Shown piece by piece: positions 1 to 33,037 of a stretch of DNA of 37,142 nucleotides. The DNA is from a bacterium. GTDB lineage: Bacteria > Patescibacteriota > Minisyncoccia > Phycocordibacterales > Phycocordibacteraceae. Position 1 is the first letter of the stretch, and each line of letters starts with the position of its first letter. Under the pieces are notes generated by a model. The model made no database searches, was not told the DNA's origin, and saw nothing but the letters and a program-made list of their open reading frames with translations. Position numbers and translations under genes: made by a program. The stretch spans positions 1-37,142 of the forward strand of contig JAKAJJ010000001.1 in the NCBI GenBank assembly GCA_021813835.1, written 5' to 3'.

Positions 1-21
1 TCATCACCATAGTAGAGATTA

Positions 22-129
22 AACCCATTTTACCAAAGATTGCTGAACGCCGCCCGCCGCCTCGCGGACTCGGCGGCAGCGGCGGAAATGCGGTGCGGGA
101 CGGCGCGGCAAGGCTGGGGTGCCGCGCCG
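22..129. repeat. Left copy of a 108-bp perfect inverted repeat (partner at 2523..2630)
   Basis: The reverse complement of 22..129 reads identically to 2523..2630 when compared base by base. Identity stops exactly at both ends. The repeat is GC-rich with internal hairpins (cggcgcgg/ccgcgccg and gccgcc/ggcggc). Confidence 0.95.
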
Positions 130-137
130 CCAAAAAC

Positions 138-166
138 TTGACATACGGCCTTGCTTGTGATAAGGT
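138..166 (+). promoter_or_regulatory. Candidate sigma70-type promoter (TTGACA, 17-nt spacer, TAAGGT preceded by TGTGA)
   Basis: TTGACA lies at 138..143 and TAAGGT at 161..166 with a 17-nt spacer. The TGTGATAAGGTC context resembles the motifs upstream of tRNA-Val (GTGTGATATAGTCC) and rnpB (TGGTATAGTCC). Confidence 0.5.
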
Positions 167-217
167 CTCTATCAGAACCTTACGCATATCGCGTGGATAA
201 AGACGATCAAGCAATAT

Positions 218-295
218 CCCCGCTAGCAAGGCCGCAAACCGCCTGAAGTTCAAAGGTTCCCCTTTGGAATGTTAGCGGGGGTATTTTGTTTGTTT
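218..295 (+). promoter_or_regulatory. Structured leader element: long compound hairpin followed by a U-rich tract (attenuator/terminator-like)
   Basis: ccccgcta (218..225) pairs with tagcgggg (273..280). An inner caaagg/cctttg hairpin is enclosed. The structure is followed by gtattttgtttgttt and lies between the promoter and the first ORF at 360. Confidence 0.4.
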
Positions 296-359
296 CGCCT
301 TTAGCCGCTCTCAGCTAAGGCGCTCTTTGACACTCACGAAAGCAGAAAGGAGGTGTTCA

Positions 360-647
360 ATGGACGAGAACGATGCCGTCAGAGGAATCATCCAAAAGAT
401 CGATTCCGACGGCAAGCATGGTCCGTATGCCATCGCGATGGTAGAGAGTTTGGGGTCAGTGACCTTTTCTCTCGAACGCCGCGTATGGAGCGAGGACGAC
501 AAACCGGGGCCGGGCGAAATCGTCATCCTATCCAAACTCCGCGAAAAGCGGGCCGGATGGAGAGCGATGCGAGCTCGGTACGTACGGCCGTCCGATAACA
601 GTCGGAACAGCCAAGCTAGCAATCAGCAAAGGAGCACCAAGCGATGA
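360..647 (+). CDS. Hypothetical small protein (95 aa)
   Basis: ATG at 360 is preceded by AAGGAGG with a 6-nt spacer. The track ORF 327..647 is trimmed to this start. The stop overlaps the next start (ATGA). Confidence 0.7.
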   Translation: MDENDAVRGIIQKIDSDGKHGPYAIAMVESLGSVTFSLERRVWSEDDKPGPGEIVILSKLREKRAGWRAMRARYVRPSDNSRNSQASNQQRSTKR

Positions 648-979
648 GCAAGAAGCAGACCCGTTCTTCCGCAGCGAAGACGAGCGCGAATTCCAAGGTG
701 ACGTACAAGGAGTTCGTGGAGCGTGCGATCAAGAGCCTGCGTGAGCCTCCCTACAAGGGGATTCACGTGGTTTTCTCCAACTTCAACAACGCATTCCGGC
801 AGTATTACGGCGAGGATCCGCGTCCCATCGTCGACCAGATGGTAGCCGAGGGATTTCTCGTTTTGCGCCCCGCGAGGGGCGGCGCCATCATCATGTTGGC
901 GTCGGATGCTGACGAGAAGTCGAAGGTCAAGAACGGCCCCAGCGCCGTGCTCGCCAAGATTCTCACCCAGAATGACTAA
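644..979 (+). CDS. Hypothetical protein (111 aa), basic N-terminus
   Basis: ATG is preceded by AAGGAG with a 9-nt spacer. It is translationally coupled to the upstream ORF through an ATGA overlap. Confidence 0.7.
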   Translation: MSKKQTRSSAAKTSANSKVTYKEFVERAIKSLREPPYKGIHVVFSNFNNAFRQYYGEDPRPIVDQMVAEGFLVLRPARGGAIIMLASDADEKSKVKNGPSAVLAKILTQND

Positions 980-1004
980 CTCACAGAGCAAGGAGCAACC
1001 AGCA

Positions 1005-1847
1005 ATGAGCACCAAGACCAACGTCGCGGTCGCCGGAAAGCAGGATGTCGTCCTGCTGCCGGTCGCCGACCTCAAGATGAAGTTCGATGTCCGCAAGGCG
1101 TTGAATGAGGACCGCGTGCTTCTCTTCATGGAGATGTACGAGTCCGGCAATCATGTCCCGCCGATCGAAGTCGTGCGGGGCACGATGGATATCCATGATG
1201 GGCGTCACCGCAAGGCGGCGCTCGACCATCTCAACCGCAGGCACGCTGAGTGCGTGCTGGTGGAGCCGATGGAGTTCGTCGACCAGCTCATGGATGCGTT
1301 CGGGAAGAACATGTCCGACTCGCCGTTCCCGCCCACGCGGGCCGACGTCATCTTCGTTATGAAGCAGCTTTTGGATGCGAACGTTCCCAACGCGCACATC
1401 CAGAAGCGTTTTGAGGCCTTTTATCGGCCGTCGCACGTGCGCAAGCTCCTCAAGGACGCGCACAGCAACGTCGTGAGGGCAAAGATGGCGAAGGCGAAGA
1501 ACGCGGTCGCGCATGGCGGTCTGACCGTCAAGGCGGCTGCGGTCGAGCATGGGGTCGAGCCGGAGCGGTTGCAGGAAGAGATCACGGGCGTGAAGAAGCG
1601 GCGCAAGGCAACGAGCGTCAGCGACATCAAGACCGAGATTACCAACCGCCATCGCGGCAACTCGCAGAAGACGATCGCGGTGTTCCGCGATCTCCTCGAC
1701 AAGTTCGAGGACGGCGAAATGTCCGAGAAGAGCGTGCTGGAAGTGCTGTTGCACGTCCAGCGCCTCAGCACGGACGGCGCCAAGCGGGTGAACTCCTGGA
1801 TCGAGCGCTTCGAGTCCCTCAAGGGCTCGATGAAGGCGAAGTCCTAA
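1005..1847 (+). CDS. ParB/Srx-fold (ParB N-terminal domain-like) protein, 280 aa
   Basis: The N-terminus reads LLPVADLK...PPIEVVRGTMDIHDGRHRKAALDHL, which is a ParB-N/DGxHR-type motif. ATG at 1005 is preceded by AAGGAG with a 9-nt spacer. The track ORF 906..1847 is trimmed to this start. Confidence 0.8.
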   Translation: MSTKTNVAVAGKQDVVLLPVADLKMKFDVRKALNEDRVLLFMEMYESGNHVPPIEVVRGTMDIHDGRHRKAALDHLNRRHAECVLVEPMEFVDQLMDAFGKNMSDSPFPPTRADVIFVMKQLLDANVPNAHIQKRFEAFYRPSHVRKLLKDAHSNVVRAKMAKAKNAVAHGGLTVKAAAVEHGVEPERLQEEITGVKKRRKATSVSDIKTEITNRHRGNSQKTIAVFRDLLDKFEDGEMSEKSVLEVLLHVQRLSTDGAKRVNSWIERFESLKGSMKAKS

Positions 1848-1905
1848 CACCTCCACCTGGGACGAGCCGAGTAATCGGCTCGTCACAAACTTCCGCGGAG
1901 AAGCT

Positions 1906-2055
1906 ATGAGCAACGAGAAACTTTTTCGAGAAGCGCAGAAGCAACTCCGACTCGCTCGCCGCAACGTCGGTAAAGCATGGAAGGAGGTGCAAGAGATGAA
2001 GTTGATGCTCGCTCGCGCACAGCGCAAGCAACCGCTCGACATCAAATCCACGTAA
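1906..2055 (+). CDS. Possible small basic helical protein (49 aa)
   Basis: This ORF was translated by hand and is below the track cutoff: MSNEKLFREAQKQLRLARRNVGKAWKEVQEMKLMLARAQRKQPLDIKST. It has a GGAG upstream and sits between a hairpin (1861..1884) and the terminator at 2087..2120. Confidence 0.4.
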   Translation: MSNEKLFREAQKQLRLARRNVGKAWKEVQEMKLMLARAQRKQPLDIKST

Positions 2056-2086
2056 TCAATCTGTCTTTCGTGAGCGAAATACCCCC

Positions 2087-2120
2087 AAACCCCATCGGCG
2101 TCGCCGATGGGGTTTTTGCT
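2087..2120 (+). terminator. Rho-independent terminator
   Basis: ccccatcggc (2090..2099) pairs with gccgatgggg (2103..2112) around a 3-nt loop and is followed by TTTTT. Confidence 0.8.
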
Positions 2121-2343
2121 GTTTGGAGAGTTAAGATGGCGGATTTTGGGGACACAAAACCCGCCACGGGGTCCCGACCGAAGCCGGGCGTAGGAGTTTC
2201 CCCCTACGGCGATCAAGCAAGTCCCACATGACGGGTTCTCTGTGCTTGATCGCCTATTCGCCATGCCAGCCGCCCTGCGGCTGGTTTAGGCTACTTCATT
2301 ATTCAGTTGTAAGAAGATGGTAGCATTTTGCTTGAAAATTATC

Positions 2344-2510
2344 TAGAGCATGTCTGAAAACCCGCGGCACCCAAGCCGAACTGCCGGTTTTTGCGCCGAG
2401 GCGCCGAACTGGAGTCCGAACCGTACTGTACGTACAGTGAGGACGAAGCGAGCGCGCCGCAGGCCAAAAAACGACAGTGCAGGCAGGGGGAGGTTTTCAG
2501 ACATGCTCTA
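2344..2510. repeat. 167-bp palindromic element with 19-bp perfect arms around an imperfectly self-complementary 129-bp core
   Basis: tagagcatgtctgaaaacc (2344..2362) is the reverse complement of ggttttcagacatgctcta (2492..2510). The core contains a perfect 14-bp palindrome actgtacgtacagt (2425..2438) and a duplicated gccgaactg. Confidence 0.85.
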
Positions 2511-2522
2511 ATTGATTGACGA

Positions 2523-2630
2523 CGGCGCGGCACCCCAGCCTTGCCGCGCCGTCCCGCACCGCATTTCCGCCGCTGCCGCCGAGTCCGCGAGGCGGCGGGC
2601 GGCGTTCAGCAATCTTTGGTAAAATGGGTT
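2523..2630. repeat. Right copy of the 108-bp perfect inverted repeat
   Basis: See 22..129. The outer end carries TGGTAAAAT, an extended -10-like motif, pointing out of the cassette. Confidence 0.95.
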
Positions 2631-2737
2631 CGTGCGAAGCGGGCTAATACATCACAATGGTGGGGATTGGAGAATAGGGCGGGGAGTTATGGGTTAGTAT
2701 TGATACGTTCGCACGCTTATCAAATTACCTTTGCACT

Positions 2738-6162: not shown

Positions 6163-7351
6163 GACGAGTTGCGATGAAACCGCCATCGCCATCGTTGACG
6201 CTGAAGGTGACGAAAAATCCGCGCGGTTCCGCGTGCTCGGCGACGCCCTCCTCTCGCAGGTAGAAATCCACAAGGCATACGGCGGCGTCTTCCCCGCCCT
6301 CGCCAAGCGCGAACACGCCAAAAACATCGTTCCCCTCCTCGAGGCGGCGCTCGAAGAGGCGGAACTCCTGCGCGAAGACGCGCAGGCGCTCTCCGGGAAG
6401 ACGCGCGCGGCCGTCGTCGCGCTCCTTGCACGCGAGCCGGGACTCGAGGAGCAGTTCCTCGAATTCGTCGGGGAGTGCGAGCCGCCCGCCATCGACGCGA
6501 TAGCGGTCACGGAGGGCCCCGGCCTTGAACCGGCGCTCTGGGTCGGCATCAATTTCGCCAAGGCGCTCGGCCTCGCGTGGAATAAGCCCCTCGTCGCGGT
6601 CGACCATATGGAAGGGCATATTTTCGCGGCGCTCGCGCGCGAGGCCCCTGCAGAAGGGCACCTTCTGCAGGAGGAAGGTGCCCTTCTGCAGATCGGGGAT
6701 GCGGAGATGCCGGTGCTCGCGCTCCTCGTCTCGGGCGGCCACACGGAACTCGTCCTGATGAAGGAGTGGCTCCGCTACGAGCTCGTGGGACGGACGCGCG
6801 ACGACGCCGTCGGCGAGGCCTTCGACAAGGTCGCGCGCATGCTCGGCCTTCCCTATCCGGGCGGCCCCGAGATTTCCAAACTCGCCGAAGCGGCGCGGGC
6901 CGCGGGCCAAGCCAGCCCGTTCACGCTCCCGCGGCCGATGCTTGATTCACCGTCCTGCGACTTCTCGTTCGCCGGCCTCAAGACCGCCGTCCTCTACCTC
7001 CTCAAGGAGCGGACGGGAGTGGGCGGAGCGGAGAAAAGGCATATCGCGCACGAGTTCGAGAACGCCGTCGCGGACGTCCTGTGGAAGAAGACCGCGCGCG
7101 CTCTCGCGGAGACCGGCGCGCGGACGCTCGTCATCGGCGGCGGCGTCTCGGCTAACGCCCACCTCCGCCGCGTTTTTACGGAAAAAATGAAGGAAGAATA
7201 CCCGGACGCGGCGCTGCACATCCCCGCTCCCGCCCTCACGACCGACAACGCCGTGATGATCGCGCTCGCCGGCTACTACCGCGCGCTCCGCAAGGACTAC
7301 GCGCGCGACATCATCGCGCGCGGCAACCGCGCGCTCGCGGAAAGGCGCTGA
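6143..7351 (+). CDS. tsaD: tRNA N6-adenosine threonylcarbamoyltransferase TsaD
   Basis: Motifs seen are ILAIETSCDETAIAIV, GPGLEPALWVG, VDHMEGHI, LLVSGGHTEL, DDAVGEAFDKVARMLGLPYPGGP and GGGVSAN. It overlaps the upstream gene by 20 nt. Confidence 0.95.
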   Translation: MKILAIETSCDETAIAIVDAEGDEKSARFRVLGDALLSQVEIHKAYGGVFPALAKREHAKNIVPLLEAALEEAELLREDAQALSGKTRAAVVALLAREPGLEEQFLEFVGECEPPAIDAIAVTEGPGLEPALWVGINFAKALGLAWNKPLVAVDHMEGHIFAALAREAPAEGHLLQEEGALLQIGDAEMPVLALLVSGGHTELVLMKEWLRYELVGRTRDDAVGEAFDKVARMLGLPYPGGPEISKLAEAARAAGQASPFTLPRPMLDSPSCDFSFAGLKTAVLYLLKERTGVGGAEKRHIAHEFENAVADVLWKKTARALAETGARTLVIGGGVSANAHLRRVFTEKMKEEYPDAALHIPAPALTTDNAVMIALAGYYRALRKDYARDIIARGNRALAERR

Positions 7352-7370
7352 TTTGCTATATTTTGAGGCA

Positions 7371-9524
7371 ATGCCGGAGAAATTCCTGAAGCCCTACGAT
7401 CCCGCCGCGACCGAGGGACGCCTCTACGGAGAGTGGGAGAAGAGCGGCCTCTTCAATCCCGACGAGTGCGTCCGGCGCGGCGCGGCGCGCGCGGACGCGC
7501 CGGCGTACTCCATCGTGCTTCCCCCGCCCAACGTCACCGGCCGGCTCCATATGGGCCACGCGCTTATGCTCGCCATCGAGGACATCTTCGTCCGCTACAA
7601 ACGGATGCGCGGTTTCCGCACGCTCTGGGTGCCCGGCACCGATCACGCCGCCATCGCCACGCAGGCGGTCGTCGAGAAACAGATAAAAAAAGACGAGGAT
7701 AAAAGCCGCCACGACCTCGGACGCGAGGAGTTTGTGAGGCGCGTCGAGGCGTTCGCGGAAGAAAGCCACGGCACCATCGTGAGCCAGCTGAAAACGATGG
7801 GCGCCTCGCTCGACTGGAGCCGCGAAGCGTTCACGCTCGACGATGCGCGCAGCCGCGCGGTGCGCACCGTCTTCAAGCGGATGTACGACGCCGGACTCGT
7901 CTACCGCGGCCACCGCATCGTCAACTGGGACCCGAAAGGCCAGACGACCATTTCCGACGACGAAGTCGTCTACGAGGAGCGGCCGGCGAAGCTCTATACC
8001 TTCCGCTATGCCAACGACTTCCCCATCAGCGTCGCGACGACCCGCCCCGAGACGAAGGTCGGCGACGTCGCGGTCGCGGTGCACCCGGACGACGCGCGCT
8101 ACCGGGACTTCGTCGGAAAGGAATACGACGCCGTCTTTTGCGACGTTCCGATCCGCCTGAAAATCGTCGCGGACGCGGCAGTCGATCCCTCCTTCGGCAC
8201 GGGCGCCGTCGGCGTCACTCCGGCGCACAGTCAGACCGACTGGGACATCGCCGACCGGCACGGGCTTTCACATCAAAATATAGTCATCAGCGAATACGCG
8301 AAGATGACCGTTCCCGGGCGCCTCAACGGAATGAAAACGGCCGCGGCCCGGGGCGCGGTCGTGGAATGGCTGAAGCGGGAAGGGCTTCTCGAGAAAGAGG
8401 AGGACATCCGCCAGAACGTCGCCACGGCGGAGCGCACGGGCGGAATTATCGAACCCCTCCCGAAGCTCCAGTGGTTCGTGGACGTGAACAGGGAGGTTCC
8501 GGGACGCGGGGCGTCGCTCAAGGAACTGATGCTCGAACCGGTCCGTTCGAAGAAAATAGCCATCATCCCCGACCACTTCGAGAAAACGTACGTCCACTGG
8601 ATAGAAAACCTGCGCGACTGGTGCGTGAGCCGTCAGATCTGGTACGGCCACCGCATCCCCGTCTGGTACAGGGGCGAGGAGATACAGGTCGGCGTCGAAC
8701 CGAAGGAGGTGGGCTGGACGCAGGACGAAGATACGCTCGACACGTGGTTCTCTTCCGGCCTTTGGACCTTCTCCACGCTCGGCTGGCCGGACGATGCGGG
8801 CGATCTGAAGACGTATCACCCCACCGACCTTCTCGAGACCGGCTACGATATCCTTTTTTTCTGGGTCGCGCGGATGATACTGATGACCGAATTCGCGCTC
8901 GGCACGATCCCTTTCAGGACGGTGTACCTCCACGGCCTCGTCCGCGACGCGCAGGGGCGCAAGATGAGCAAGTCGCTCGGCAACAATCTCGACCCTGTCG
9001 ACATCGCGGCGAAATTCGGCGCGGACGCCGCGCGGATGGCGCTCGTCGTCGGCAATACGCCCGGTACCGACACGCGCATCAGCGAGGACAAGGTGAAGGG
9101 CTACAAGCACTTCGCGAACAAGCTCTGGAACATCGCGCGGTTCATCCTCGAGAACGCGGACGATGCGGATGCCGCCGTGCCGCTGTCGGAAGCCGACGTC
9201 GCGCACCGCGCCGCCCTCGATGCGCTCACGCGCGAGGTGACGGCCGACATCGACGGCTACCGCGTTTACCTCGCCGCCGAGAAGCTGTACCACTACGCGT
9301 GGCATGAGCTCGCGGACAACATCATCGAAGAATCGAAGCCGGTCCTCCAGGGAGCGGATGCGGCCGCCAAAGCGTCGCGGCGGGCGCTGCTCGCCCGCCT
9401 CTTCGACCGGACGCTCCGGCTCCTCCACCCGTTTATGCCCTTCGTGACCGAGGAGATCTGGCAGTCCCTCCCTGCGAAGGATGCGGATTATCTTATGGTT
9501 GCGCGGTGGCCGGTGGTAGAATGA
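7371..9524 (+). CDS. valS: Valine--tRNA ligase (short form, 717 aa)
   Basis: The HIGH-type motif PPPNVTGRLHMGHAL and KMSKSLGN are present. Editing-domain motifs TTRPETKVGDVAVAVHPDD and GTGAVGVTPAHSQTD are present. The ATG at 7371 is preferred over the TTG at 7353. Confidence 0.95.
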   Translation: MPEKFLKPYDPAATEGRLYGEWEKSGLFNPDECVRRGAARADAPAYSIVLPPPNVTGRLHMGHALMLAIEDIFVRYKRMRGFRTLWVPGTDHAAIATQAVVEKQIKKDEDKSRHDLGREEFVRRVEAFAEESHGTIVSQLKTMGASLDWSREAFTLDDARSRAVRTVFKRMYDAGLVYRGHRIVNWDPKGQTTISDDEVVYEERPAKLYTFRYANDFPISVATTRPETKVGDVAVAVHPDDARYRDFVGKEYDAVFCDVPIRLKIVADAAVDPSFGTGAVGVTPAHSQTDWDIADRHGLSHQNIVISEYAKMTVPGRLNGMKTAAARGAVVEWLKREGLLEKEEDIRQNVATAERTGGIIEPLPKLQWFVDVNREVPGRGASLKELMLEPVRSKKIAIIPDHFEKTYVHWIENLRDWCVSRQIWYGHRIPVWYRGEEIQVGVEPKEVGWTQDEDTLDTWFSSGLWTFSTLGWPDDAGDLKTYHPTDLLETGYDILFFWVARMILMTEFALGTIPFRTVYLHGLVRDAQGRKMSKSLGNNLDPVDIAAKFGADAARMALVVGNTPGTDTRISEDKVKGYKHFANKLWNIARFILENADDADAAVPLSEADVAHRAALDALTREVTADIDGYRVYLAAEKLYHYAWHELADNIIEESKPVLQGADAAAKASRRALLARLFDRTLRLLHPFMPFVTEEIWQSLPAKDADYLMVARWPVVE

Positions 9525-9528
9525 AAGG

Positions 9529-10233
9529 GTGACCCTGACGACGCTCGGCTACGCATTCCTCGGCGGACTGCTCCCTTCCCTCATCTGGCTCTACTTCCTC
9601 CTCAAGGAGGACGCGCGCTGTCCCGAACCGCGCGCCCTCATCGCGTTCGCGTTCGTCGCCGGTATGGCGGCGGTGCCGCTCGCTCTCCCCCTCGAACAGT
9701 ATTCGAAAACGCACCTTTCCGGGGATGTGTCCGTCCTCGCCGCCTGGGCGCTCATCGAGGAAACGCTCAAGTACGCGATGGCCGCCGCTTTCATCCTCTG
9801 GCGCCGCGCGGTCGACGAAGCGCCCGATTACGTCGTGTATATGCTCACCGTGGCGCTCGGCTTCGCCTCGGCGGAAAATATGCTCTTCCTCTTCGCTCCC
9901 ATCGCGAGCGGGAATTTCGCGACCGGCATCTTCACCGGCGATCTGCGTTTCCTCGGCTCGACCCTGCTCCACGTCGTCGCCTCGGCCGCCATCGGCTTCG
10001 CGCTCGCGTTCTCGGCGAAGATGCGCCCGCTCGCGCGCAGCGCGGCGGCGGCGTTCGGACTTATCCTCGCCGTCGTATTGCATACGGCCTTCAATCTGCT
10101 TATCATCAAGCAAGGCGCCTCGACCGCGCTCACCGCGTTCTTCCTCGTCTGGCTCGTCGTCGTCATTTTCTTCGCGGCGTTCGAAGTTCTCAAATACTTC
10201 CGCTACCGTAACCTCCCCACTAATACCTGCTGA
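9529..10233 (+). CDS. PrsW-family intramembrane metalloprotease
   Basis: The protein is polytopic and carries IEETLKY (EExxK), FASAENMLF (FxxxEN) and LLHVVASAAIG. It uses a GTG start 5 nt after the valS stop. Confidence 0.8.
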   Translation: MTLTTLGYAFLGGLLPSLIWLYFLLKEDARCPEPRALIAFAFVAGMAAVPLALPLEQYSKTHLSGDVSVLAAWALIEETLKYAMAAAFILWRRAVDEAPDYVVYMLTVALGFASAENMLFLFAPIASGNFATGIFTGDLRFLGSTLLHVVASAAIGFALAFSAKMRPLARSAAAAFGLILAVVLHTAFNLLIIKQGASTALTAFFLVWLVVVIFFAAFEVLKYFRYRNLPTNTC

Positions 10234-10739: not shown

Positions 10740-11825
10740 TCATTTCAGCGTCACGGTTTCCTCCGCGGGCGGCAGGGCGACCGGCTCGACCGTAAACGGC
10801 AGGCGCGCGATGAGGCGCCCGTCGATGGTCTCGACATCGACCCGCCACGCTCCCGGCGCGCTGGCGAGCGCGGCCGAGTAGCCGCGGTAGCCGCCGTCGC
10901 GGCCGCCGACGATCGGGTAGGAGATGGCCGCTTTCGTGACCCACTGCTTGAGGGACGGGTCGTACCACTCCCAGCGGTGGACGATGGTCGTCTCGAGCGC
11001 GGTGGGGGCGAAGACGGCGCTGTAGGCGTAGAGCGACTCGCCGGAAACGACGTGGAGCGTCGGGGAGAAGCCGAGGTAGCGCACCGTCCAGGGCTCGATC
11101 TCGCTCGTCGCGAGGTAGGCGCCCGGGACGCGCCAGACGGCGTGGTAGACGCCCGCGGCTTCGGCCGAGAGCGGCAGGGGCGGCAAGATGTTCAGGAAAT
11201 AAAAAACGTTCACGAGGACGAAGACCGCGGCGGCGCCGGCACGGATGCGCCACACGTCCTCGCGGAAGCGCGCGCGGCCGAGGATGCGCAGGAGAACCGT
11301 GAAAAGCGCGAAAAGCGCGATGGCGACGGCGCCGCTCTCGAGGAAAGTCAGGGTGCCGAGGGTGCCGGTATAGATCGGAACGGCGAAGATCGCGTAGGAG
11401 TAGAGCGCAAAAAAGAAAAGCACGGAGGTGAAGACGAGCCGGTCGTGGTAGCGGTGGAACACTTCGTTGCCGACGAGGAACGCCGCGATGACGAGCAGGA
11501 AGGGCCATGACGCCGAGAGGACCGCCGAGCGGCCGTAGAAGACGAAGAAGCCGCTCCAAAAACCGCCGAGCGCGAATTGCGTCGCGAGGGGAAGCACGGG
11601 CCGCCAGCGCGGGCGCGGGAAGCCGCGCGCCGCGCGTTCCTCGAACCAGTGCAGGAGCGCAATGGCGAGGAAGCAGACGGCGGTATAGGCGGCGAAGACC
11701 GCCTGCGTCTGCCAGAGGTCGACGCGCTTGAAGAGGAGATTGTCGGCGGCGAAACCGGCGAGCATGGCGGCGGCCGAAAGGTGCCGTTCGTACCGCTGCA
11801 TCCATGCGAAGAGCGCGCGAAACAT
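10740..11825 (-). CDS. Polytopic membrane protein with a C-terminal DUF2914-like domain
   Basis: There are several N-terminal TM helices. The C-terminus reads HRWEWYDP...YPIVGGRDGGYRGYS...PGAWRVDVETIDGRLIARLPFTV, which I recall as the DUF2914 signature. The ATG lies 4 nt after the tRNA-Phe discriminator base. Confidence 0.8.
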   Translation of the reverse strand: MFRALFAWMQRYERHLSAAAMLAGFAADNLLFKRVDLWQTQAVFAAYTAVCFLAIALLHWFEERAARGFPRPRWRPVLPLATQFALGGFWSGFFVFYGRSAVLSASWPFLLVIAAFLVGNEVFHRYHDRLVFTSVLFFFALYSYAIFAVPIYTGTLGTLTFLESGAVAIALFALFTVLLRILGRARFREDVWRIRAGAAAVFVLVNVFYFLNILPPLPLSAEAAGVYHAVWRVPGAYLATSEIEPWTVRYLGFSPTLHVVSGESLYAYSAVFAPTALETTIVHRWEWYDPSLKQWVTKAAISYPIVGGRDGGYRGYSAALASAPGAWRVDVETIDGRLIARLPFTVEPVALPPAEETVTLK

Positions 11826-13913: not shown

Positions 13914-14098
13914 TATCCACTCGAACGGGCTGTGTTGCCAGCGTATCGAGCCATTCTTTTCGTATTCTGATTACTTTCGAGGGTGGCGAAGGGTCAGACG
14001 TGGGGAACCATGACAGCTATGTGATTTTTGATCCTGAAAGGGCGAAAATAATTAGAGAGCAGGAGGTAAACGTCCCGGTCGTTTAAACTAGCACTGGA

Positions 14099-14128
14099 TG
14101 GTGCCTCGGCTCGGTCTCGAACTTTGTC
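14099..14128 (-). other. Decayed tRNA 3'-end-like fragment (C)
   Basis: tggtgcctcggctcggtctcgaac mimics the reverse complement of a tRNA 3' end (ACCA, acceptor and T-loop TCGAA). The T-stem cannot pair and no 5' acceptor partner is present. Confidence 0.5.
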
Positions 14129-14188
14129 ACGAGAGGCAATTCAAGGGCCTTCGGATGAATTTTAGGACAGCAGACTGGGGTATCTCGG

Positions 14189-14890
14189 TCACCAATTTGT
14201 TTTTCCTAAATCAAGTACGGGCTTCCCAACTATCGCACTTTCGGACACCATATAGGTTGACGTTGAGGTTGGATTATCTTTGGTCAGGTAAATGTCGCCC
14301 TGCGGTACAGTTATCCCATTGACCACATTGCCAGATACTCCAGCAACACGAGCGATGACATAGTATGCCCCTTGCGCGTCTTGCACTGTTGCAATAACAA
14401 CATTCCCTACCGAAACGGACTTATCGACTTTTTCAATCACGATGTACTCCCCAGAAGGATACGCGGGCGCCATGCTGTCGCCGTCAACCAAAAATGGGGC
14501 GAACAAGAATCCCCGCAGGAGTACAACTACGATAACTAAAAGGAGGAAAGCGGCAATATTGCCAATAAAAAGGACGAGAACTGACTTCCAGAAGTTTGTT
14601 TGGAGGTATTTTCTATACAGTACAGCCCCGACAATATAGGAACCGAGAACGGCGAATAACTTAAATATAACGGCGTTGAGTAAGAATCCGATTCCTGAAA
14701 TCACTAACGGAGCGACCGACGCTAAAGCCATGATCCAGACAACGCGCGGGAATGTGCTCGCAGTAATGTGAAAGAGTTTGTTGATGAGATGTTGCAATTC
14801 GGCGACCGCCAAGAACACCAGGATTGCAACGGCGATAATCGAGAGTATGAGTATGAGAATGAGACCCATATAGTCAGTATACCTTGCCAC
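14189..14890 (-). CDS. Membrane protein with a C-terminal S26/S24 signal-peptidase-I-like domain (general-base Lys apparently replaced)
   Basis: About four N-terminal TM helices precede FLFAPFLVDGDSMAPAYPSGE, the SPase I Ser box. The box normally reading (Y/V)KR(I/V)xGxPGD reads YVIARVAGVSGN here. Confidence 0.75.
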   Translation of the reverse strand: MARYTDYMGLILILILSIIAVAILVFLAVAELQHLINKLFHITASTFPRVVWIMALASVAPLVISGIGFLLNAVIFKLFAVLGSYIVGAVLYRKYLQTNFWKSVLVLFIGNIAAFLLLVIVVVLLRGFLFAPFLVDGDSMAPAYPSGEYIVIEKVDKSVSVGNVVIATVQDAQGAYYVIARVAGVSGNVVNGITVPQGDIYLTKDNPTSTSTYMVSESAIVGKPVLDLGKTNW

Positions 14891-14921
14891 TTAAGAAGGG
14901 ATTTCAACAACGCATCAGTCT

Positions 14922-14944
14922 CTTGCATTAGCACTAGTTGGTGC
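14922..14944. repeat. 23-bp direct repeat, copy 1 (cttgcattagcactagttggtgc), including a tRNA 3'-end-like TGGTGC
   Basis: It matches 16040..16062 at 21 of 23 positions. It is followed by a decayed tRNA-like fragment, tggtgccccaccctagtcgtgaacttcg. Confidence 0.8.
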
Positions 14945-15031
14945 CCCACCCTAGTCGTGAACTTCGTGGGACAAGGCGTGGGAATCACGCTTCTCTTCCT
15001 TGGTTGTCCCCTCGCGTATAGAGTATGCTGC

Positions 15032-15919
15032 ATGGATACTCCCCATATGAAAATTGATCCGGAAAGCTATCGCGAGTTTTTCGCCGGGCGCACGTTGGTG
15101 TTGGGCACGAAACACAAAAAAGAGGACGTGATCGCTCCCATCCTCGAGAGAGAGTTGGGCGTGCGTGTCGTCGTTCCGGATAATTTTGACACGGACCAAT
15201 TCGGCACCTTCACCCGCGAGATCGCTCGAACCGGAAACCAGCTTGAGGCGGCGCGCCGCAAGGCTGCGGCAGCCATGGAGCTTCTTGGGGCGGATTTGTC
15301 TCTTGCGAGCGAAGGCAGTTTTGGGCCGCACCCGGACATCCCATTCATACCATCCAATTTAGAACTCGTGCTCCTCGTGGACCGCAAGCACGGGTTTGAA
15401 ATCCGCGGTCACCATCGGAGCGAGGAGGCAAATGCCGCTTCCGCTTCTGTTTCAAGCGTTGCGGAAGCAAGACAATTTGCCGAGAAAATAGGGTTTCCCG
15501 GGCAGGGGTTGGTGGTGAGGAGGGACGAGCACCGCAATCAGGATATTTTCAAGGATATTTCCTCATATGAAGAACTCGAGGAAAAGGTTTCATATCTATT
15601 GAGTAAATTCCTCGTTCATAAGGTGTATCTAGAAACGGACTTGCGTGCGCACGCCAATCCCCTGCGTATGAAAAACATAGGACTGGCCGCGGAAGATTTG
15701 ATAAAAAATATAAAGAGCACGTGTCCGGAGTGCGCCACGCCCGGATTCGTGATTGTCGATACCGTGCGCGGACTGCCGTGCCAGTTGTGCGGCCAAGAGA
15801 CTGACTTGGCGCTGGCGGTTATCCGTGAATGTCAAAAATGCGGATCGAGACGCCGAGACCCGCACCCGGAAGCAAAAACGTCTGCTGATCCGGTGATGTG
15901 CGGCTATTGCAATCCGTAA
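15032..15919 (+). CDS. Conserved hypothetical protein (DUF6671-like by recollection) with a C-terminal Cys-rich zinc-ribbon
   Basis: Motifs seen are LGTKHKKEDVIAPILE, FDTDQFGTFTREIAR and ASEGSFGPHPDIPF. The C-terminal cysteine pairs are CPEC...CQLC...CQKC...CGYC. The track ORF 14768..15919 is trimmed to the ATG at 15032. Confidence 0.7.
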   Translation: MDTPHMKIDPESYREFFAGRTLVLGTKHKKEDVIAPILERELGVRVVVPDNFDTDQFGTFTREIARTGNQLEAARRKAAAAMELLGADLSLASEGSFGPHPDIPFIPSNLELVLLVDRKHGFEIRGHHRSEEANAASASVSSVAEARQFAEKIGFPGQGLVVRRDEHRNQDIFKDISSYEELEEKVSYLLSKFLVHKVYLETDLRAHANPLRMKNIGLAAEDLIKNIKSTCPECATPGFVIVDTVRGLPCQLCGQETDLALAVIRECQKCGSRRRDPHPEAKTSADPVMCGYCNP

Positions 15920-16039
15920 TAAAAAGCGCACATGCGACGCAGGCGATGTTGGGGGTGAGGAGTACTCACGCGGGTTGGCAACAAGACCTCCTGTCGCTCT
16001 GGAGAGGTATCTGAAATGTTGCTTAAGATATTCTAGTCG

Positions 16040-25550: not shown

Positions 25551-26060
25551 TCACTCCGAAACGCTCGGCCAACTTTGCAATAGGAGCGGCGTGCCGGTGG
25601 CGATGCCCCGCGCATCCGCGAAGCCCGCGGCGGTCTCAAGGACATACTGGGACGGAGCGCTCGGATAAAAGACATCCGGATACGTCGACGGCGCGACATC
25701 CTTCGCGAGGGAAACGACGTGTCCTTGAGCGTCCAGCCAGAACATATCGAGCGGAACGAGGGTATCCTTCATCCAAAAGCCGTAGTAATCAGGTCTCGGG
25801 AAGACGAAAAGCATTCCATAGCCGTCAGGGACATTCGTGCGGCCGCCGAGTCCGAGTTCCCGCGCGGCCGTCGTCGTCGCGAATTCGACGGTCAGGGGCG
25901 CGCCGCCGAACTCCCCCGTCGCGAACCTTCCCGCGGAAGGCGCCCGGTACGCTACGGCGAGAGCGAGGAGGATGAGACCGGCAACGGAAAGGCCGAAAAG
26001 GAAGCGCGGCATAGGCAAGGGTGGTTGCAGGTCGGTTTTGAACTCTCCTACATCAAGCAT
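25551..26060 (-). CDS. DUF192 (COG1430) domain protein, membrane-anchored or secreted
   Basis: GLGGRTNVPDGYGMLFVF...FWMKDTLVPLDMFWLDAQGHVV is the DUF192 pattern. An N-terminal hydrophobic segment is present. The start is uncertain, with candidates at 26099 (TTG), 26060 and 26012. Confidence 0.75.
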   Translation of the reverse strand: MLDVGEFKTDLQPPLPMPRFLFGLSVAGLILLALAVAYRAPSAGRFATGEFGGAPLTVEFATTTAARELGLGGRTNVPDGYGMLFVFPRPDYYGFWMKDTLVPLDMFWLDAQGHVVSLAKDVAPSTYPDVFYPSAPSQYVLETAAGFADARGIATGTPLLLQSWPSVSE

Positions 26061-26114
26061 TGTAAGGGTTCTTGAGCCGGTTGGCGACGCTGAATTCAAG
26101 GGGAACGGTCACAA

Positions 26115-26324
26115 TTAATTTAAACTTCCGGAGACTGACGAAAAATTTTTATCCTCTCTCGTATAATATTTATTACCCTCGATATCTTGGTATTGAAGAT
26201 AGATTTCATTCTCCTGACTTATTTCCTGATATTGTTTTGGGTTGAAAATTGCATTGATCGTAGTATTGGGAGCCAACCAACCCCAGGTAGGGGTAAAACT
26301 CACGGGTCGGGCGCTATAAAACAA
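26115..26324 (-). CDS. Hypothetical small ORF (69 aa) in the AT-rich island
   Basis: The open frame sits in AT-rich DNA. It has only a TTG or GTG start, no clear RBS, and overlaps the purM-like stop by 11 nt. Confidence 0.3.
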   Translation of the reverse strand: MFYSARPVSFTPTWGWLAPNTTINAIFNPKQYQEISQENEIYLQYQDIEGNKYYTREDKNFSSVSGSLN

Positions 26325-27246
26325 ATTTTCGGCCAGTGAATGCGGACGTTATGTGTACGGCAGCATTTCCCCGCACGACCTCGCCAATAATAAAGCTATT
26401 TTTAAATCTCTTGAGAATTGCTCGAACCTCGGATTTCGGAACAGAAAGAACAAAACCGATGCCACAATTGAATGTCGAATACATTGCTTTATCGGAGACA
26501 CCCTTAACGTGAATTTCGTGGAAGATCTTCGGCACGCTCTCTTTCGGCTGTAAAATTATCGCATCGACATTCTTAAGAATATCCTTTAACTTCGTGAACG
26601 CTCCGCCGGTAATATGCATCATTCCATTTACTTTGTGCTGCCCAAGTATCTTAAGTACCTCATCCAAATAAATTCTCGTTGGCTTGATAAATGCCGACTC
26701 GTAATGTTTACCAAATATCTCCCGTACCTTGGTGATGCCGTTTGAATGGAGCCCGCTGCTGGGGAAACCGATAAGCACGTCACCAACCTCGCACTGTTTT
26801 TTGAGACGTTTTCTAAGAAATGCAGAAACGGTAATGCTGATGTCCATGCTGTGTACATCGGAGTGAATCGAGGTCTCGCCTCCGGTCATGGCTATCTTTC
26901 TCTTCTTGCATTCGGACACCAATTTCTTCACTATAGCTAAAATCGCATCATGATCATCCTTGGGCAAGACGATATGGTTTTGGATTGCATACGGAATCGC
27001 TCCGACCATTGCGAGGTCGTTCAGGTTCATCGCGAGCGCATCAATCACGGCGTTCTCGAACGTTCTTTTCTTCCAATGATAGAAACCTTTCGTTCCGATG
27101 CCATCCGTATGCTGGACCTCCCAGAAGGAAAACTGCTTCTTGAAAACTGGATAGAGGCCTGGCTCGACTTTCAAATAGGGCGTATTCCAGGTACTCTCAA
27201 TCAATTTTAAGATTTGACGCTTGTATGGCTTCGTCGGGTTATACAC
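26314..27246 (-). CDS. purM: Phosphoribosylformylglycinamidine cyclo-ligase (AIR synthetase, PurM)-like protein
   Basis: Motifs seen are HTDGIGTKG, DLAMVGA, MTGGETS, SSGLHSNG, HITGGAFTK and NCGIGFVL. It uses a GTG start and is visibly AT-rich relative to the backbone. Confidence 0.82.
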   Translation of the reverse strand: MYNPTKPYKRQILKLIESTWNTPYLKVEPGLYPVFKKQFSFWEVQHTDGIGTKGFYHWKKRTFENAVIDALAMNLNDLAMVGAIPYAIQNHIVLPKDDHDAILAIVKKLVSECKKRKIAMTGGETSIHSDVHSMDISITVSAFLRKRLKKQCEVGDVLIGFPSSGLHSNGITKVREIFGKHYESAFIKPTRIYLDEVLKILGQHKVNGMMHITGGAFTKLKDILKNVDAIILQPKESVPKIFHEIHVKGVSDKAMYSTFNCGIGFVLSVPKSEVRAILKRFKNSFIIGEVVRGNAAVHITSAFTGRKFVL

Positions 27247-27281
27247 CTAAACATTGTAGCTCGACATACCTATTTTAAGTA

Positions 27282-27333
27282 CTCGGGTCTGTCCGATAAA
27301 TAATACTTCGGGCGGTGTCTCCGGGATTCGAAC
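27282..27333. repeat. Imperfect direct repeat, copy X, containing a tRNA T-arm/acceptor-like fragment
   Basis: ctcgggtctgtccgataaataatacttcgggcggtgtctccgggattcgaac aligns at roughly 70 percent identity by eye with 28993..29045. The reverse complement of 27311..27333 is GTTCGAATCCCGGAGACACCGCC. Confidence 0.55.
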
Positions 27334-27406
27334 TTTTGGAGTGAGCCCTTGCGGGCGTTCTTTGGCGGGGTTTCGAGTAGCCCACTTAGGCCTTGGGGTC
27401 GTTACG

Positions 27407-28900
27407 CTACTTTACAACTTTGGCGTCGTAATAGAAATTATTTTTATCCATGCCCTCATATTTGAGACCGTCATTGCTGTCGTCTATCACGACAAAGGAT
27501 GTCGGATCGGCGCCGGAAATTATTGATGATTGGTCGCCACCAATATAATAGACGTTTTTTGAGTCGATACCGTAAAAGTACGGGTAGGTTCGCTGAATCA
27601 CAAAAGTCGCTTTATCCACTCCGGTAATGGGCGTGCCTTCAAAATAGATGTTGTTTGAATCCTCGGCAAAATAACCGTCCGGATCACCCCAAAAGTTTGC
27701 CACATCGGACGATATAGGAAGCATGGTGGTATCCTCGTGAACAGGGCCTACCATATAGACATGCGTGGCATCCTTTCCATAAATGGGATTTATCCATACA
27801 AAAGTGGAAGGATCAGCACCTACCACAATTTTCCCTTCATAATATACGTGCTGGGAATCCTTGGCCATGATTCCATTGTAAGAACCCGCGAGGAGCCCGA
27901 CCTCATCACCGCCAAAAGGATCACCACCTAGAACTTGAAAAGTTTTAGGATCCGCTTCTGCTATTGGGGTGACAATCATAGGATTAATATTCTGTTCTAC
28001 AAAATATACATGCTGAGCATCTTTAGCGTACATCGCGCTGAGAGGTTGAAAAGTTGATGGATCGATATCTGCATCGGACGGCATATCCGCATACGTATAT
28101 GTCCACTCGGTGGAATTTCGCGCTACGCTGGTATCAGACGATGCTGTGCTAGTCGGCACAATAAAATTATTCGGATTGGCACCAGCAATAGGCTGGCCGT
28201 ACTGATACACTGCGTGAGAATCTTTTGCATAATAATTTCCGAGCGAAACGAATGTCGCAAGATTGGCACTCGTAAGAGGCAAAAATCCTTCGTAATTAGG
28301 ATTTGAGATATCTTCATAATAAACGGTCTTGGCATCCTTTCCGTACATTTGATCCAGCATGGTAAATGTCGAGGCGTCGATATTCACGTATAACCGCATT
28401 CCGTCCCGGTAAACATAATTGGTGTCTTTAGCGAATCGCGGATTTGTCGAAATAATTTGGAAAGAATTTAAGTCGGCACCCGTCATGGCATATCTCCCGA
28501 AGAAAACGTGCTGAGCATCTTTGCCGTAGCATACAGAACCCGATACTTGAGCACCTTCGATACCAAAAACGGAAAGCGGACTCGGTGTTATGGATGTGAA
28601 GCTGTTTGCATCGGCACCGAGCACTAAATAAGAGCTGGTAGCGGACACGGCGCTATTTCCCAACGTCAGAAAAACCTTGTCTTGCTGAACGACATAGCAA
28701 GGTGACGAGTCCACACTTTGAACCGTGGAGGATGGAATCATAGTTGAGAAATTATCTCGTTCTATCCAAGCCGCAAATGCTACCGTGGCTATAAGTAGCA
28801 GCACGATCACCCCTACCCATATATAAAATTTGAACCTGCTTTTTGGCACTGGCGCTACAGGCGTAGGCGCGGAATTTTGGTGCTCTGGTGAAGATGGCAT
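27407..28900 (-). CDS. DKNYY-repeat family protein with an N-terminal membrane anchor
   Basis: Repeated units occur such as YAKDSHAVYQYGQPIAGANPNNF, YAKDAQHVYFVE...ADPKTF, AKDSQHVYYEGKIVVGADPSTF and GIDSKNVYYIGG...ADPTSF. The ATG at 28900 is preceded by GAGG with a 5-nt spacer. The TM helix is FYIWVGVIVLLLIATVAFAAW. Confidence 0.82.
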   Translation of the reverse strand: MPSSPEHQNSAPTPVAPVPKSRFKFYIWVGVIVLLLIATVAFAAWIERDNFSTMIPSSTVQSVDSSPCYVVQQDKVFLTLGNSAVSATSSYLVLGADANSFTSITPSPLSVFGIEGAQVSGSVCYGKDAQHVFFGRYAMTGADLNSFQIISTNPRFAKDTNYVYRDGMRLYVNIDASTFTMLDQMYGKDAKTVYYEDISNPNYEGFLPLTSANLATFVSLGNYYAKDSHAVYQYGQPIAGANPNNFIVPTSTASSDTSVARNSTEWTYTYADMPSDADIDPSTFQPLSAMYAKDAQHVYFVEQNINPMIVTPIAEADPKTFQVLGGDPFGGDEVGLLAGSYNGIMAKDSQHVYYEGKIVVGADPSTFVWINPIYGKDATHVYMVGPVHEDTTMLPISSDVANFWGDPDGYFAEDSNNIYFEGTPITGVDKATFVIQRTYPYFYGIDSKNVYYIGGDQSSIISGADPTSFVVIDDSNDGLKYEGMDKNNFYYDAKVVK

Positions 28901-28992
28901 GAGTACCTCAACTGTATCAGTTTTAAACCGATTCAAAACTCGGTTATCAACTTACGCGAACCAACCCTCAAGGTCGCACCTTCGCCCTAGGC

Positions 28993-29045
28993 CTCGGGGT
29001 TGGTCCGATAAAAAAGTCTGACTGCGGTGTGAGTAAGTCCAGAAC
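28993..29045. repeat. Imperfect direct repeat, copy Y (partner 27282..27333)
   Basis: ctcggggttggtccgataaaaaagtctgactgcggtgtgagtaagtccagaac. Its left edge also resembles taggccttggggtcgtt at 27377. Confidence 0.5.
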
Positions 29046-29168: not shown

Positions 29169-29996
29169 ATGGGAAAGGAAATATCAGCACGGGCCGTGGC
29201 CGCATACCTGCCGACGATTATGAAGGCCGTGGCTTCAATCGAGGCCGAGCTCGCCCTATACCCCGACCTTGCCGGTCGGGCCTCTTTACACGTGCTCGGG
29301 CTTGAAAAAGAGACTGGCAGCTCGAACCTGACGCACGCGATGCGCATCATGAACGCGTGGCTCGAAGGCACGAAATTCAAAGCGGATTTCCGCTTCTTCC
29401 ACAAGATTGAGCCTGATGCGGACTGGAATGACATGGTCGCGCTTCTGAATGGCAAGATCACGTCGCACGACACATCCGCGATAGGACCACGGGCGAAAGC
29501 GGCACGTCGTGGAGCCGGTCCTACCATCCAAGGAATTCCTGACGGGGCTGTATGGGACGATATCGAGATACGCTTCCTGAATGCGCACGAGGTCATGGTC
29601 TCGCATAAAGGGAAAGCGCTCGAGAAGCACGGGTACGACCAGCTCGGGTTCGCGGCAAAAAATACGAAAGATCACAGGCCGAACAAGGGGTGGGACTTCC
29701 TCACGAAACTATCGATTGCCACGATGAAGAGTGCCGGCAAGCAGAGGGTCGAGGATATCGCTGCCAAGATGCACGTCACGAGAGGTGCGTGCGCGCAGAT
29801 GAAGAAATCAGCGGCAAAGAACTTGAGGAAGGCATTCGACATCGACGCCGACCCGTTTTACGACTACAAAGTCGTAGGCGAATACCGTCCCAGGTTTAAG
29901 CTCGTTCCGGAACCCGTCCTGCGCGGCGACGGAGAGCTGCACCGATCGGGCCGGAGCCTCCGCGATGACGATCTGCCGGAGGACGACGAAGACTGA
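29169..29996 (+). CDS. Hypothetical protein with a sigma-70 region-4/LuxR-like HTH near the C-terminus and an acidic tail
   Basis: VEDIAAKMHVTRGACAQMKKSAAKNLRKAF resembles a region-4 HTH. TAAGAT lies 6 nt upstream of the ATG. A tandem aaatgcaat x2 lies at 29124..29141. Confidence 0.7.
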   Translation: MGKEISARAVAAYLPTIMKAVASIEAELALYPDLAGRASLHVLGLEKETGSSNLTHAMRIMNAWLEGTKFKADFRFFHKIEPDADWNDMVALLNGKITSHDTSAIGPRAKAARRGAGPTIQGIPDGAVWDDIEIRFLNAHEVMVSHKGKALEKHGYDQLGFAAKNTKDHRPNKGWDFLTKLSIATMKSAGKQRVEDIAAKMHVTRGACAQMKKSAAKNLRKAFDIDADPFYDYKVVGEYRPRFKLVPEPVLRGDGELHRSGRSLRDDDLPEDDED

Positions 29997-30011
29997 AGCC
30001 GGTCAGGAACG

Positions 30012-30046
30012 AAAAACGCCGATGAGTTTTCATCGGCGTTTTTCGT
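30012..30046 (+). terminator. Rho-independent terminator
   Basis: aaaaacgccgatga and tcatcggcgttttt form a 14-bp stem with a 4-nt loop and a T-tract. Confidence 0.85.
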
Positions 30047-30147
30047 CTCATCGGGAGAAGGAATGTACGAGTCTGCGCGGTGGAATCGGTTCGTGCTGAG
30101 TTCTCAGCAGATGCTTATAGGAGCGATAACCAGGCTCCGCTACTACC

Positions 30148-32002: not shown

Positions 32003-32009
32003 CGGATGC

Positions 32010-32798: not shown

Positions 32799-33037
32799 AC
32801 AGGTTACCGAGATTAGGGGTAAATCCTGATGGACGGGTAGCACAAAACCCGCCACCAGGAAGGCCTTGCGGCCTCTATATGAGTTTCCCCATATAACGTA
32901 GGAGACGCCCTGATGACGGGTTTTCTATCTCCTACGATTTGCGACCATGCCCGAGGATTTCTCCCGCAGGTTTAGGCCATTTTATTCGTGTGTCGAACTC
33001 AGTCATGATAGCCCGTTTTGAGCTATCCTTGAAGACC

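Follow-up and report, generated by a model that had tools for sequence, protein, structure and literature searches.

Large serine recombinase (LSR) integrative elements, which include those with phiC31, Bxb1, and A118-type integrases and the TnpX/TndX-type elements, are the described systems closest to the locus analyzed here, a 2.6-kb unit bounded by 108-bp perfect inverted repeats in a patescibacterium. The unit occupies positions 22-2630 of a 37,142-nucleotide (nt) stretch of contig JAKAJJ010000001.1, which we refer to as the window. As in LSR elements, a serine recombinase gene lies beside the junction sequences, a conserved core joins different DNAs, motifs are inverted on the two sides of the inserted DNA, and one related lineage is integrated beside a tRNA gene together with a Rep gene. 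Unlike LSR elements, which usually have attachment (att) sites of 40 to 50 bp, the locus has arms of at least 108 to 150 nt, its repeat copies are perfectly identical, the unit is without a recombinase, and recombination is something that we infer from the sequence. Attachment sites are recognized as imperfect inverted half-sites around a central crossover dinucleotide, with hybrid attL and attR sites at the ends; here a conserved motif-spacer-core arrangement occurs at both ends in direct orientation, with distances and symmetry unlike those of the canonical 25-bp half-site (PMC3783163). The Resolvase, Recombinase, and zinc-ribbon domains that define LSRs are present in full-length relatives of 516 amino acids (aa) in locus L060 and 489 aa in loci L013 to L016.

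Several other systems resemble parts of the unit. In serine-invertase switches (Hin/hix, Gin/gix, Cin, and Pin), inverted repeats also bound a segment with a serine recombinase gene adjacent to it, but this locus has a recombinase of the large type and repeats of 108 bp rather than about 26 bp, its conserved cores are direct, and only one orientation is observed. Insertion sequences (ISs) and miniature inverted-repeat transposable elements likewise end discrete segments with perfect inverted repeats; in contrast, the unit has no transposase, no target-site duplication, and a single copy, and its repeats are far longer than typical terminal inverted repeats (TIRs). A 280-aa protein encoded in the unit (g3) shares with KorA/KorB and the ParB/Noc clamps a ParB/Srx N-domain, an arginine-rich GRHR patch, and a helical DNA-binding region, and it is encoded with small partners in an autoregulated-looking operon. 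It differs from those systems in that there is no ParA/IncC ATPase and no Pfam ParB_N match at threshold, and its partner has an oligonucleotide/oligosaccharide-binding (OB) fold and is not KorA. The window also has two full-length matches above the gathering score to the LOOT RNA family (Rfam RF03000), at 2173-2292 and 32860-32978; the first of these lies within the repeat-bounded unit and shares an 11-mer with the operon leader.

We lean toward the view that the 2.6-kb unit is a composite, lineage-specific product built around LSR junction sequences and not a transposon. The structure is real, unusual, and lineage specific, and it is best placed with serine-recombinase-associated integrative DNA. 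To our knowledge, the candidate-phyla bacteria, with their tiny genomes, have almost no characterized mobile elements. The locus is a population-level structural polymorphism that links an LSR family, a conserved junction sequence, and a widespread gene module. Should the arms be genuine recombinase substrates, they would represent new, easily testable att sites and possibly a trans-mobilized type of cassette. Its interest rests mainly on the uncharacterized module family, the candidate att-like motif, and the possibility of trans mobilization.

Inverted repeats, recombinase arms, and two alleles

A repeat search returned the left copy (IR-L; 22-129, plus strand) and the right copy (IR-R; 2523-2630, minus strand) as 108-nt segments that are 100% complementary and 2,393 nt apart, as the original prediction had described them, and the same layout occurs in an independent assembly. 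That assembly (L001, a MEGAHIT k141 contig from a different sample) has 8 substitutions relative to the window over 11.8 kb and repeats its order exactly, with left flank, IR-L, interior, IR-R, and right flank. Because k=141 exceeds the 108-nt repeat length and each copy was assembled with unique flanks on both sides, the repeats are not an artifact of repeat collapse. We therefore rejected an assembly artifact, given the agreement of two independent assemblies that differ in their single-nucleotide polymorphisms and a k-mer longer than the repeat. IR-R is also 100% identical in three further contigs (L002, L004, and L071). The window probably begins where its own 53,454-nt contig begins, and the left flank (F) continues for at least 112 nt beyond window position 1, which is as far left as L001 reaches.

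The repeats are unique to this lineage in the collections searched. The original prediction had proposed a search for further repeat copies and for target-site duplications, and it yielded neither. There is no third copy of the 108-nt arm in the 37-kb window, there were no matches to the repeat end or the left flank in 185,579 species-representative (GTDB) genomes, JGI metagenomes, or IMG/VR, and the repeat had no blastn match in plasmids or phages. The flanks read ...GTAGAGATTA up to the left repeat and CGTGCGAAGC after the right one, and no short direct repeat abuts the ends. When the two 133-nt outer flanks were aligned locally, 84 of 1,000 shuffles reached the score, which is therefore not significant. 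We also considered the repeat hairpin as a dispersed repetitive extragenic palindromic element and dropped the idea, as GGCGCGG-N-CCGCGCC is confined to the two repeat copies.

The two ends of the unit carry related junction sequences. The left flank ends (1-21, plus strand) with the core CATCAC at 2-7, 13 nt of sequence (CATAGTAGAGATT), and an A; an inverted motif, 13 nt on from the core, opens IR-L, the outer end of which carries AACCCATTTT, the arm motif minus its first base. IR-R forms the distal portion of a longer arm, which runs on into the right flank, where the junction site (2621-2668, plus strand) consists of the motif AAAATGGGTTC (2621-2631), an 18-nt spacer, the core CATCAC (2650-2655), and AATGGTGGGGATT (2656-2668). 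Both flanking cores are in direct orientation, and the sequences that follow them are alike (9 of 13 nt identical). The motif extends 1 nt past IR-R and not past IR-L, so IR-R looks like the parent copy; the sequence suggests that IR-R and its flank form the parental arm and that IR-L is the copy. Toward its inner end (102-128), IR-L forms a hairpin with a 10-bp stem. The inner end of the repeat is 6 nt from the conserved left edge of the operon (ACTTGACA, 136-143), and IR-R lies 5 nt from a long palindrome.

Alignments relate these ends to noncoding arms beside LSR genes in Patescibacteria. The outer 29 nt of the repeat are identical at 23 of 29 positions to the arm upstream of the recombinase gene in L033, and repeat positions 37-76 align with the distal arm in contig L005 (406-451), with CTCGCGGACTCG in common; in each comparison, none of 300 shuffles scored as high. 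In direct orientation, the left flank together with the 14 nt that follow it aligns collinearly with a segment made up of the outer 50 nt of IR-R and 38 nt of the right flank. The score of this comparison (61.5) was reached by 1 of 1,000 dinucleotide shuffles and by none of 452 real segments, and it is significant only when the comparison is gap tolerant and the outer half of IR-R is included. Among 81 loci, the exact 11-mer GAACCCATTTT is found only at the junction of IR-R with the right flank and upstream of the LSR genes in L033 and L060. A five-way alignment (A6) resolves a bipartite element, AAxTxGGTTC-N18-21-CAC. By these comparisons the repeats, the flanks, and the LSR arms are homologous, and the repeats are paralogues of recombinase-adjacent arms. 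The match between the repeat and the 172 nt that separate the core from the recombinase start codon was marginal (6 of 500 shuffles; the 22 aligned nt are a GC-rich hairpin) and was not used.

Two alleles of the locus exist in the population. Ten public contigs encode the 280-aa protein. The window, L001, L003 (which starts inside IR-L), and L007 represent variant A, with the arrangement given in the original prediction, and four contigs represent variant B (L002, from the NCBI metagenome-assembled genome GCA_021843245.1, L004, L005, and L006). From window position 792 to the right, through IR-R and into the adjoining chromosome, variant B matches the window at 100% identity; it is without IR-L, g1, and the 5′ half of g2, the first two genes of the operon described below; g1 is on record solely in variant A samples. 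To the left of 792, variant B has an Xre-type helix-turn-helix (HTH) gene that forms an in-frame fusion with the C-terminal 61 codons of g2, then 178 nt of noncoding DNA, and then the reverse complement of the left flank of the window (L005 327-445 corresponds to L001 119-1, 100% identical in reverse orientation), which here lies upstream of a serine recombinase gene. That gene starts 172 nt beyond the flank and reads away from the module. The LSR gene and its 172 nt of upstream DNA are joined to the arm immediately after CATCAC, and the breakpoint between variants A and B, which is also immediately after the core, coincides with the conserved CAC. Relative to g3, the arm is oriented oppositely in the two variants. 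In variant B, the recombinase gene borders the left arm; it is absent from 22-2630 and is not seen in the repeat-bearing allele, the contigs of which end 21 to 133 nt left of IR-L. All contigs that span a repeat junction show a single orientation of the interior (IR-R in the window, L001, L002, L004, and L071; IR-L in the window and L001).

The CAC core is a joining point for DNA in three independent settings. In L033, a divergent HTH gene and recombinase gene are laid out as in variant B, beside housekeeping genes. In L060 (9592-11417), the gene for the 516-aa LSR is bounded by 133-nt inverted repeats that are 90% identical (9634-9766 and 11285-11417), with one arm starting exactly at the conserved CCAC core and the other overlapping the 3′ end of the gene beside a tRNA gene. 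The L060 unit looks like a minimal, IS-like element with the recombinase as its sole cargo.

The recombinase of the strain studied here is on record only as N-terminal fragments (at most 96% identity, mostly at contig ends), and a 51-aa N-terminal fragment stands beside the same arm in L005. We also detected a related LSR that is split into an 86-aa Resolvase open reading frame (ORF) and a 374- to 424-aa Recombinase/zinc-ribbon ORF on 12 contigs from several studies (L072 to L081; e.g., L072 505-2020). The two ORFs overlap by 8 nt in some contigs and are 130 nt apart in others, and the split gene could be a pseudogene or carry a conserved frameshift. Contig ends also carry many other N-terminal fragments of this family. 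A further possible recombinase remnant is an ORF fragment at the far end of the window (36444-37094, plus strand), which resembles the Recombinase domain of the L015 LSR (29% identity over 153 aa, 3e-9).

We postulate that the two 108-bp repeats are inverted copies of a noncoding arm that lies beside Patescibacteria LSR genes and that these genes have been joined to other DNA at the CAC core of the arm. IR-R plus 38 nt of the right flank would constitute one complete arm plus core, and the left flank would constitute a second, in direct orientation. IR-L would be the distal 108 nt of the right arm, copied in inverted orientation, and its perfect identity to that arm implies that the copy is recent. 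The arms may be substrates of the recombinase (att-like half-sites) and not merely promoter or operator DNA, in which case LSR-mediated events among several arm copies could have produced the present arrangement. Since the two cores are directly oriented, recombination between them would excise the unit and not invert it.

The operon and its module family

The interior of the unit is dominated by an operon that spans 136-2125 from promoter to terminator. Its promoter (136-166, plus strand) is near consensus, with the conserved start ACTTGACA, TTGACA at 138-143, a 17-nt spacer, and TGnTAAGGT at 158-166; the same aCTTGACAaa start forms the left edge of the module in L009, L015, L018, L034, L035, and L036. 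The structured leader (165-300, plus strand; -53.2 kcal/mol, z = -6.3) ends attenuator-like in a hairpin and U-run and contains CGATCAAGCAA at 204-214. Four plus-strand ORFs of 95, 111, 280, and 49 aa follow (g1, 360-647; g2, 644-979; g3, 1005-1847; g4, 1906-2055), the first two of which overlap in ATGA. A conserved hairpin precedes the helical 49-aa ORF, g4, which is found in the closest relatives. The intrinsic terminator (2087-2115) is bidirectional and common to the operon and the LOOT gene, and an imperfect palindrome or long hairpin of 167 nt (2337-2517, z = -7.8) lies beyond it. The consensus-like promoter, the structured leader, the ORFs with their overlap (including the possible fourth), the strong terminator, and the palindromic element had all been noted in the original prediction, as had the ParB-like character of the 280-aa product, and each stood up to reanalysis.

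The g3 protein matches PHROG 1033 ("ParB-like partition protein") at 8.8e-9 and consists of a ParB/Srx N-domain, a GRHR motif that is invariant across 20 homologues, and a helical DNA-binding part. Its AlphaFold model (mean predicted local distance difference test [pLDDT] score, 84) has its best Foldseek matches in the PDB to Noc, ParB with CTP analogues, KorB, and PadC (E values from 5.6e-6 to 4e-4, probability 1.0; 5.6e-6 to Noc and 8.2e-6 to ParB-CTPgammaS). No PF02195 (ParB_N) match reaches the Pfam threshold for the window protein, and P0025 is the only relative with a hit, a weak one. No ParA/Walker ATPase gene is encoded in the operon or in related loci. ParB/Srx-fold proteins include nucleases; judging from its modeled structure, g3 resembles CTP-switch DNA clamps (Noc, ParB, and KorB) rather than a nuclease. 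Its conserved partner, the 95-aa g1, is predicted by AlphaFold2 (pLDDT, 76.5) to form an OB/cold-shock-like barrel, and Foldseek aligns it with CspA (template modeling score, 0.57/0.75; root mean square deviation, 2.4 Å; E value, 0.014). The 111-aa g2 has no detectable family, with no relatives detected outside its own group and nothing in Pfam or a PDB profile search. Because g3 resembles KorB, ParB, and Noc, we propose that g3 and g1 act as a sequence-specific, CTP-gated DNA-binding regulator or partition factor of the excised element, and not as its nuclease.

None of g1 to g4 belongs to a Pfam, NCBIfam, or PADLOC family above threshold, and Pfam, NCBIfam, PHROGs, and PADLOC all agree that the unit contains no transposase, integrase, or invertase, in line with the earlier statement that no known mobility gene lies inside. 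The suspected foreign origin was also borne out, in that the region is foreign, rearrangement-prone DNA. The contents of the unit are composite; 2173-2630, with the LOOT gene, the hairpin, and IR-R, falls outside the conserved module.

We collected about 45 related Patescibacteria loci. The core of the family is g1 directly followed by g3, which are adjacent in most of these loci; g2 is limited to the subfamily nearest the window, and g4 is limited to the nearest relatives. The g3 family is sizeable yet unnamed, comprising 304 clusters at 50% identity with E values of ≤1e-30, all of similar length, and its named hosts are Saccharibacteria, Nomurabacteria, or "Patescibacteria group." Relatives with 83 to 90% aa identity in g3 have differing housekeeping-gene neighbors: methionine aminopeptidase (M24 peptidase) and NDK at one locus, DprA and SerRS at another, and peptidase M3 and AlaRS at a third, with a further copy upstream of HD_3/DHFR. 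The DNA conserved in these relatives runs from the aCTTGACAaa promoter to the terminator.

The GC content of the module is about 0.5 to 0.63 (0.41 at one locus), mostly above that of the flanks (0.34 to 0.61); in L030 the module has 0.557 versus 0.336 in the host. By these sequence features, the modules look like recently and horizontally acquired mini-islands of 1.2 to 2 kb, usually without a recombinase of their own. In four loci (L030 at 6900-8850, L029, L026, and L052), g3 genes with a GC content of 0.62 to 0.65 sit in host DNA of 0.34 to 0.44, as sharply bounded GC-rich mini-islands of 1.2 to 2 kb without an integrase.

The cargo family does not use the repeats, as flanking inverted repeats of ≥20 nt were absent from the approximately 45 related loci. 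The original prediction had named the wide occurrence of the gene set without flanking repeats as an argument against itself, and this is the situation that we observed. In L013 to L016, the trio occurs with a Phage_rep_O protein and the 489-aa LSR, the 3′ end of which abuts a tRNA gene; these loci are small integrative elements and are probably replicative. The proposal that the unit is a remnant of a plasmid or phage partition or regulatory module holds in part, since the trio looks like the maintenance or regulatory module of an integrative, plasmid-like element of this kind. No g3 relative was found on known mobile DNA in plasmids, phages, or IMG/VR.

Alternative explanations for the arrangement

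A number of observations weigh against an origin of the unit from LSR junction sequences. The arm homologies are short, gapped alignments with empirical p values of about 0.001 to 0.003 each, and the arm comparisons were picked after the sequences had been inspected. The conserved block contains TATAAT 7 nt before the core and could serve as the promoter of the recombinase gene, as an operator for the divergent HTH repressor, or as both, instead of as a crossover site. On the recombinase side, the half-sites of L005, L033, and L060 are without the mirror-image motif expected of a symmetric attP. The half-site of a Listeria integrase is 25 bp (PMC3783163), and the distance from motif to center here (18 + 6 nt) is greater than that. 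No excision, inversion, or circle junction was present in any contig. Both the arms and the motif are missing from the other module loci, so the arms cannot account for the mobility of the module in general. The DNA to the left of the flank is not in either assembly, and the history linking the two alleles therefore cannot be reconstructed.

An alternative that we regard as unlikely is that the unit is a nonautonomous integrative cassette, in which IR-L and IR-R would be the P′ and P arms of attP upon circularization and the serine recombinase of a neighboring element would act in trans. Its predicted circle junction is IR-R-GTGCGAAGCGGGCTAATA-CATCAC-CATAGTAGAGATT-IR-L, and its predicted empty-site (deletion) junctions are left flank-core-AATGGTGG and left flank-CATCAC-AATGGTGGGGATT. 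The recombinase-arm motif at the repeat ends agrees with this hypothesis, as does the geometry of the CATCAC cores, which are directly oriented, lie outside the repeats at distances of 13 nt (IR-L) and 18 nt (IR-R), and predict excision. In serine integrases, the zinc-ribbon motif is shifted by 5 bp between attP and attB, and the 5-nt difference between the two motif-core spacings recalls this shift by analogy (PMC3783163). The similarity of the sequences after the two cores and the placement of the L060 recombinase gene within long inverted repeats that start at the core point in the same direction. However, no contig showed the circle junction or the empty site, the collections searched contained no second copy of the repeat ends, variant B holds IR-R with a diverged, nonidentical left arm, and the cargo relatives are wholly without arms.

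A more elaborate proposal, which strikes us as improbable, is that the repeats are the two arms of an unusually long and perfectly symmetric attachment site. A recombinase-less cassette would then be moved in trans by a Patescibacteria LSR on a separate, L060-like unit bounded by long inverted repeats from the same CAC core, the OB-fold and ParB/KorB-like cargo would maintain or silence the excised circle, and LOOT RNA would regulate it by pairing with the leader attenuator.

We also doubt that the repeats are an incidental, functionless inverted duplication, in which template switching at the 167-nt palindrome or at GC hairpins copied the 108 nt upstream of the peptidoglycan-binding gene across the module. 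The perfect identity of the copies implies a very recent event, the palindrome is 5 nt from IR-R, variant B has IR-R without IR-L, and IR-R looks parental by the extent of its motif, all of which agrees with such a duplication. It leaves unexplained, however, why IR-L landed exactly between a second recombinase arm and the edge of the module and why the allele breakpoint is at the conserved core.

The original prediction had raised the possibility of a phase-variable segment, in which recombination between the repeats would flip the 2.4-kb interior and switch the transcription unit that faces the flanking promoters. Perfect 108-bp inverted repeats would suit RecA-dependent or site-specific inversion, one allele has a serine recombinase gene close by, and samples differ in how the left-flank arm is oriented relative to g3, with both orientations on record. 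We nevertheless consider inversion very unlikely. The interior has one orientation relative to the right flank in all contigs that span a repeat junction, k=141 contigs pass both repeats unbroken, and the flanking cores are direct and not inverted. The change of orientation between samples concerns DNA to the left of IR-L and not the cassette.

We give next to no credence to a new TIR-bounded transposable element with the ParB/Srx-fold protein as its transposase, also put forward in the original prediction; the module does move between genomes without a recognized recombinase at most loci, and there are nucleases among proteins of this fold, but the gene set occurs in about 45 loci without flanking repeats, no target-site duplication or further copy was found in the collections searched, the fold and motif of g3 match CTP-binding clamps, and the repeats enclose a LOOT gene and a hairpin that are outside the conserved module.

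LOOT RNA genes and the rest of the window

A LOOT RNA gene on the minus strand of the unit, which the first inspection of the sequence had overlooked, matches the Rfam model at 2173-2292 with 69.2 bits, above the gathering score of 46.4. The gene as a whole spans 2141-2292, with the Rfam match followed by a conserved 3′ tail (GTGGCGGGTTTTGTG) and with a -10-like sequence (GCTACCAT) upstream. Both LOOT matches in the window cover model positions 1 to 121. The second (32860-32978, minus strand; 78 bits) is directly upstream of a gene for a membrane-anchored protein and shares with the first a GCTA(C/T)CAT box upstream and the GTGGCGGGTTTTGTG tail beyond the Rfam model. Among its neighbors (29169-32855) is a phage-like remnant with two genes, a ParB_N + N6/N4 DNA methylase gene at 30148-31497 and one for a terminase-small-like HTH_Tnp_1_2 protein at 31481-32002.

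Counting both strands, the window has exactly two copies of the 11-mer CGATCAAGCAA (204-214 and 2210-2220), against 0.01 occurrences expected. One copy lies in the 5′ arm of the terminator-like hairpin of the leader. The other is inside the LOOT gene, so LOOT RNA has the complement of this 11-mer in the 3′ arm of its variable hairpin. From this sequence match, we speculate that LOOT RNA could open the leader attenuator through pairing, and the orphan LOOT RNA would tentatively gain its first concrete genomic partner. The energy of a global LOOT-leader duplex was no better than that of shuffled sequences, 65 of 500 of which reached the observed value. We dropped an association of LOOT RNA with the module family, as none of 23 related loci contains one.

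Elsewhere in the window, the segment at 2729-2869, at the start of the peptidoglycan-binding-domain gene, differs from L071 by 13 substitutions in 140 nt, in contrast to 3 kb of otherwise identical flanking sequence that includes IR-R; the segment is a local hypervariable or recombined patch. Two stretches of low GC content (14000-16000 and 26000-29000; 0.44 to 0.54, versus about 0.65 in the backbone) encode DUF6671, DKNYY-family, and AIR-synthase-related proteins and are probably further acquired islands.

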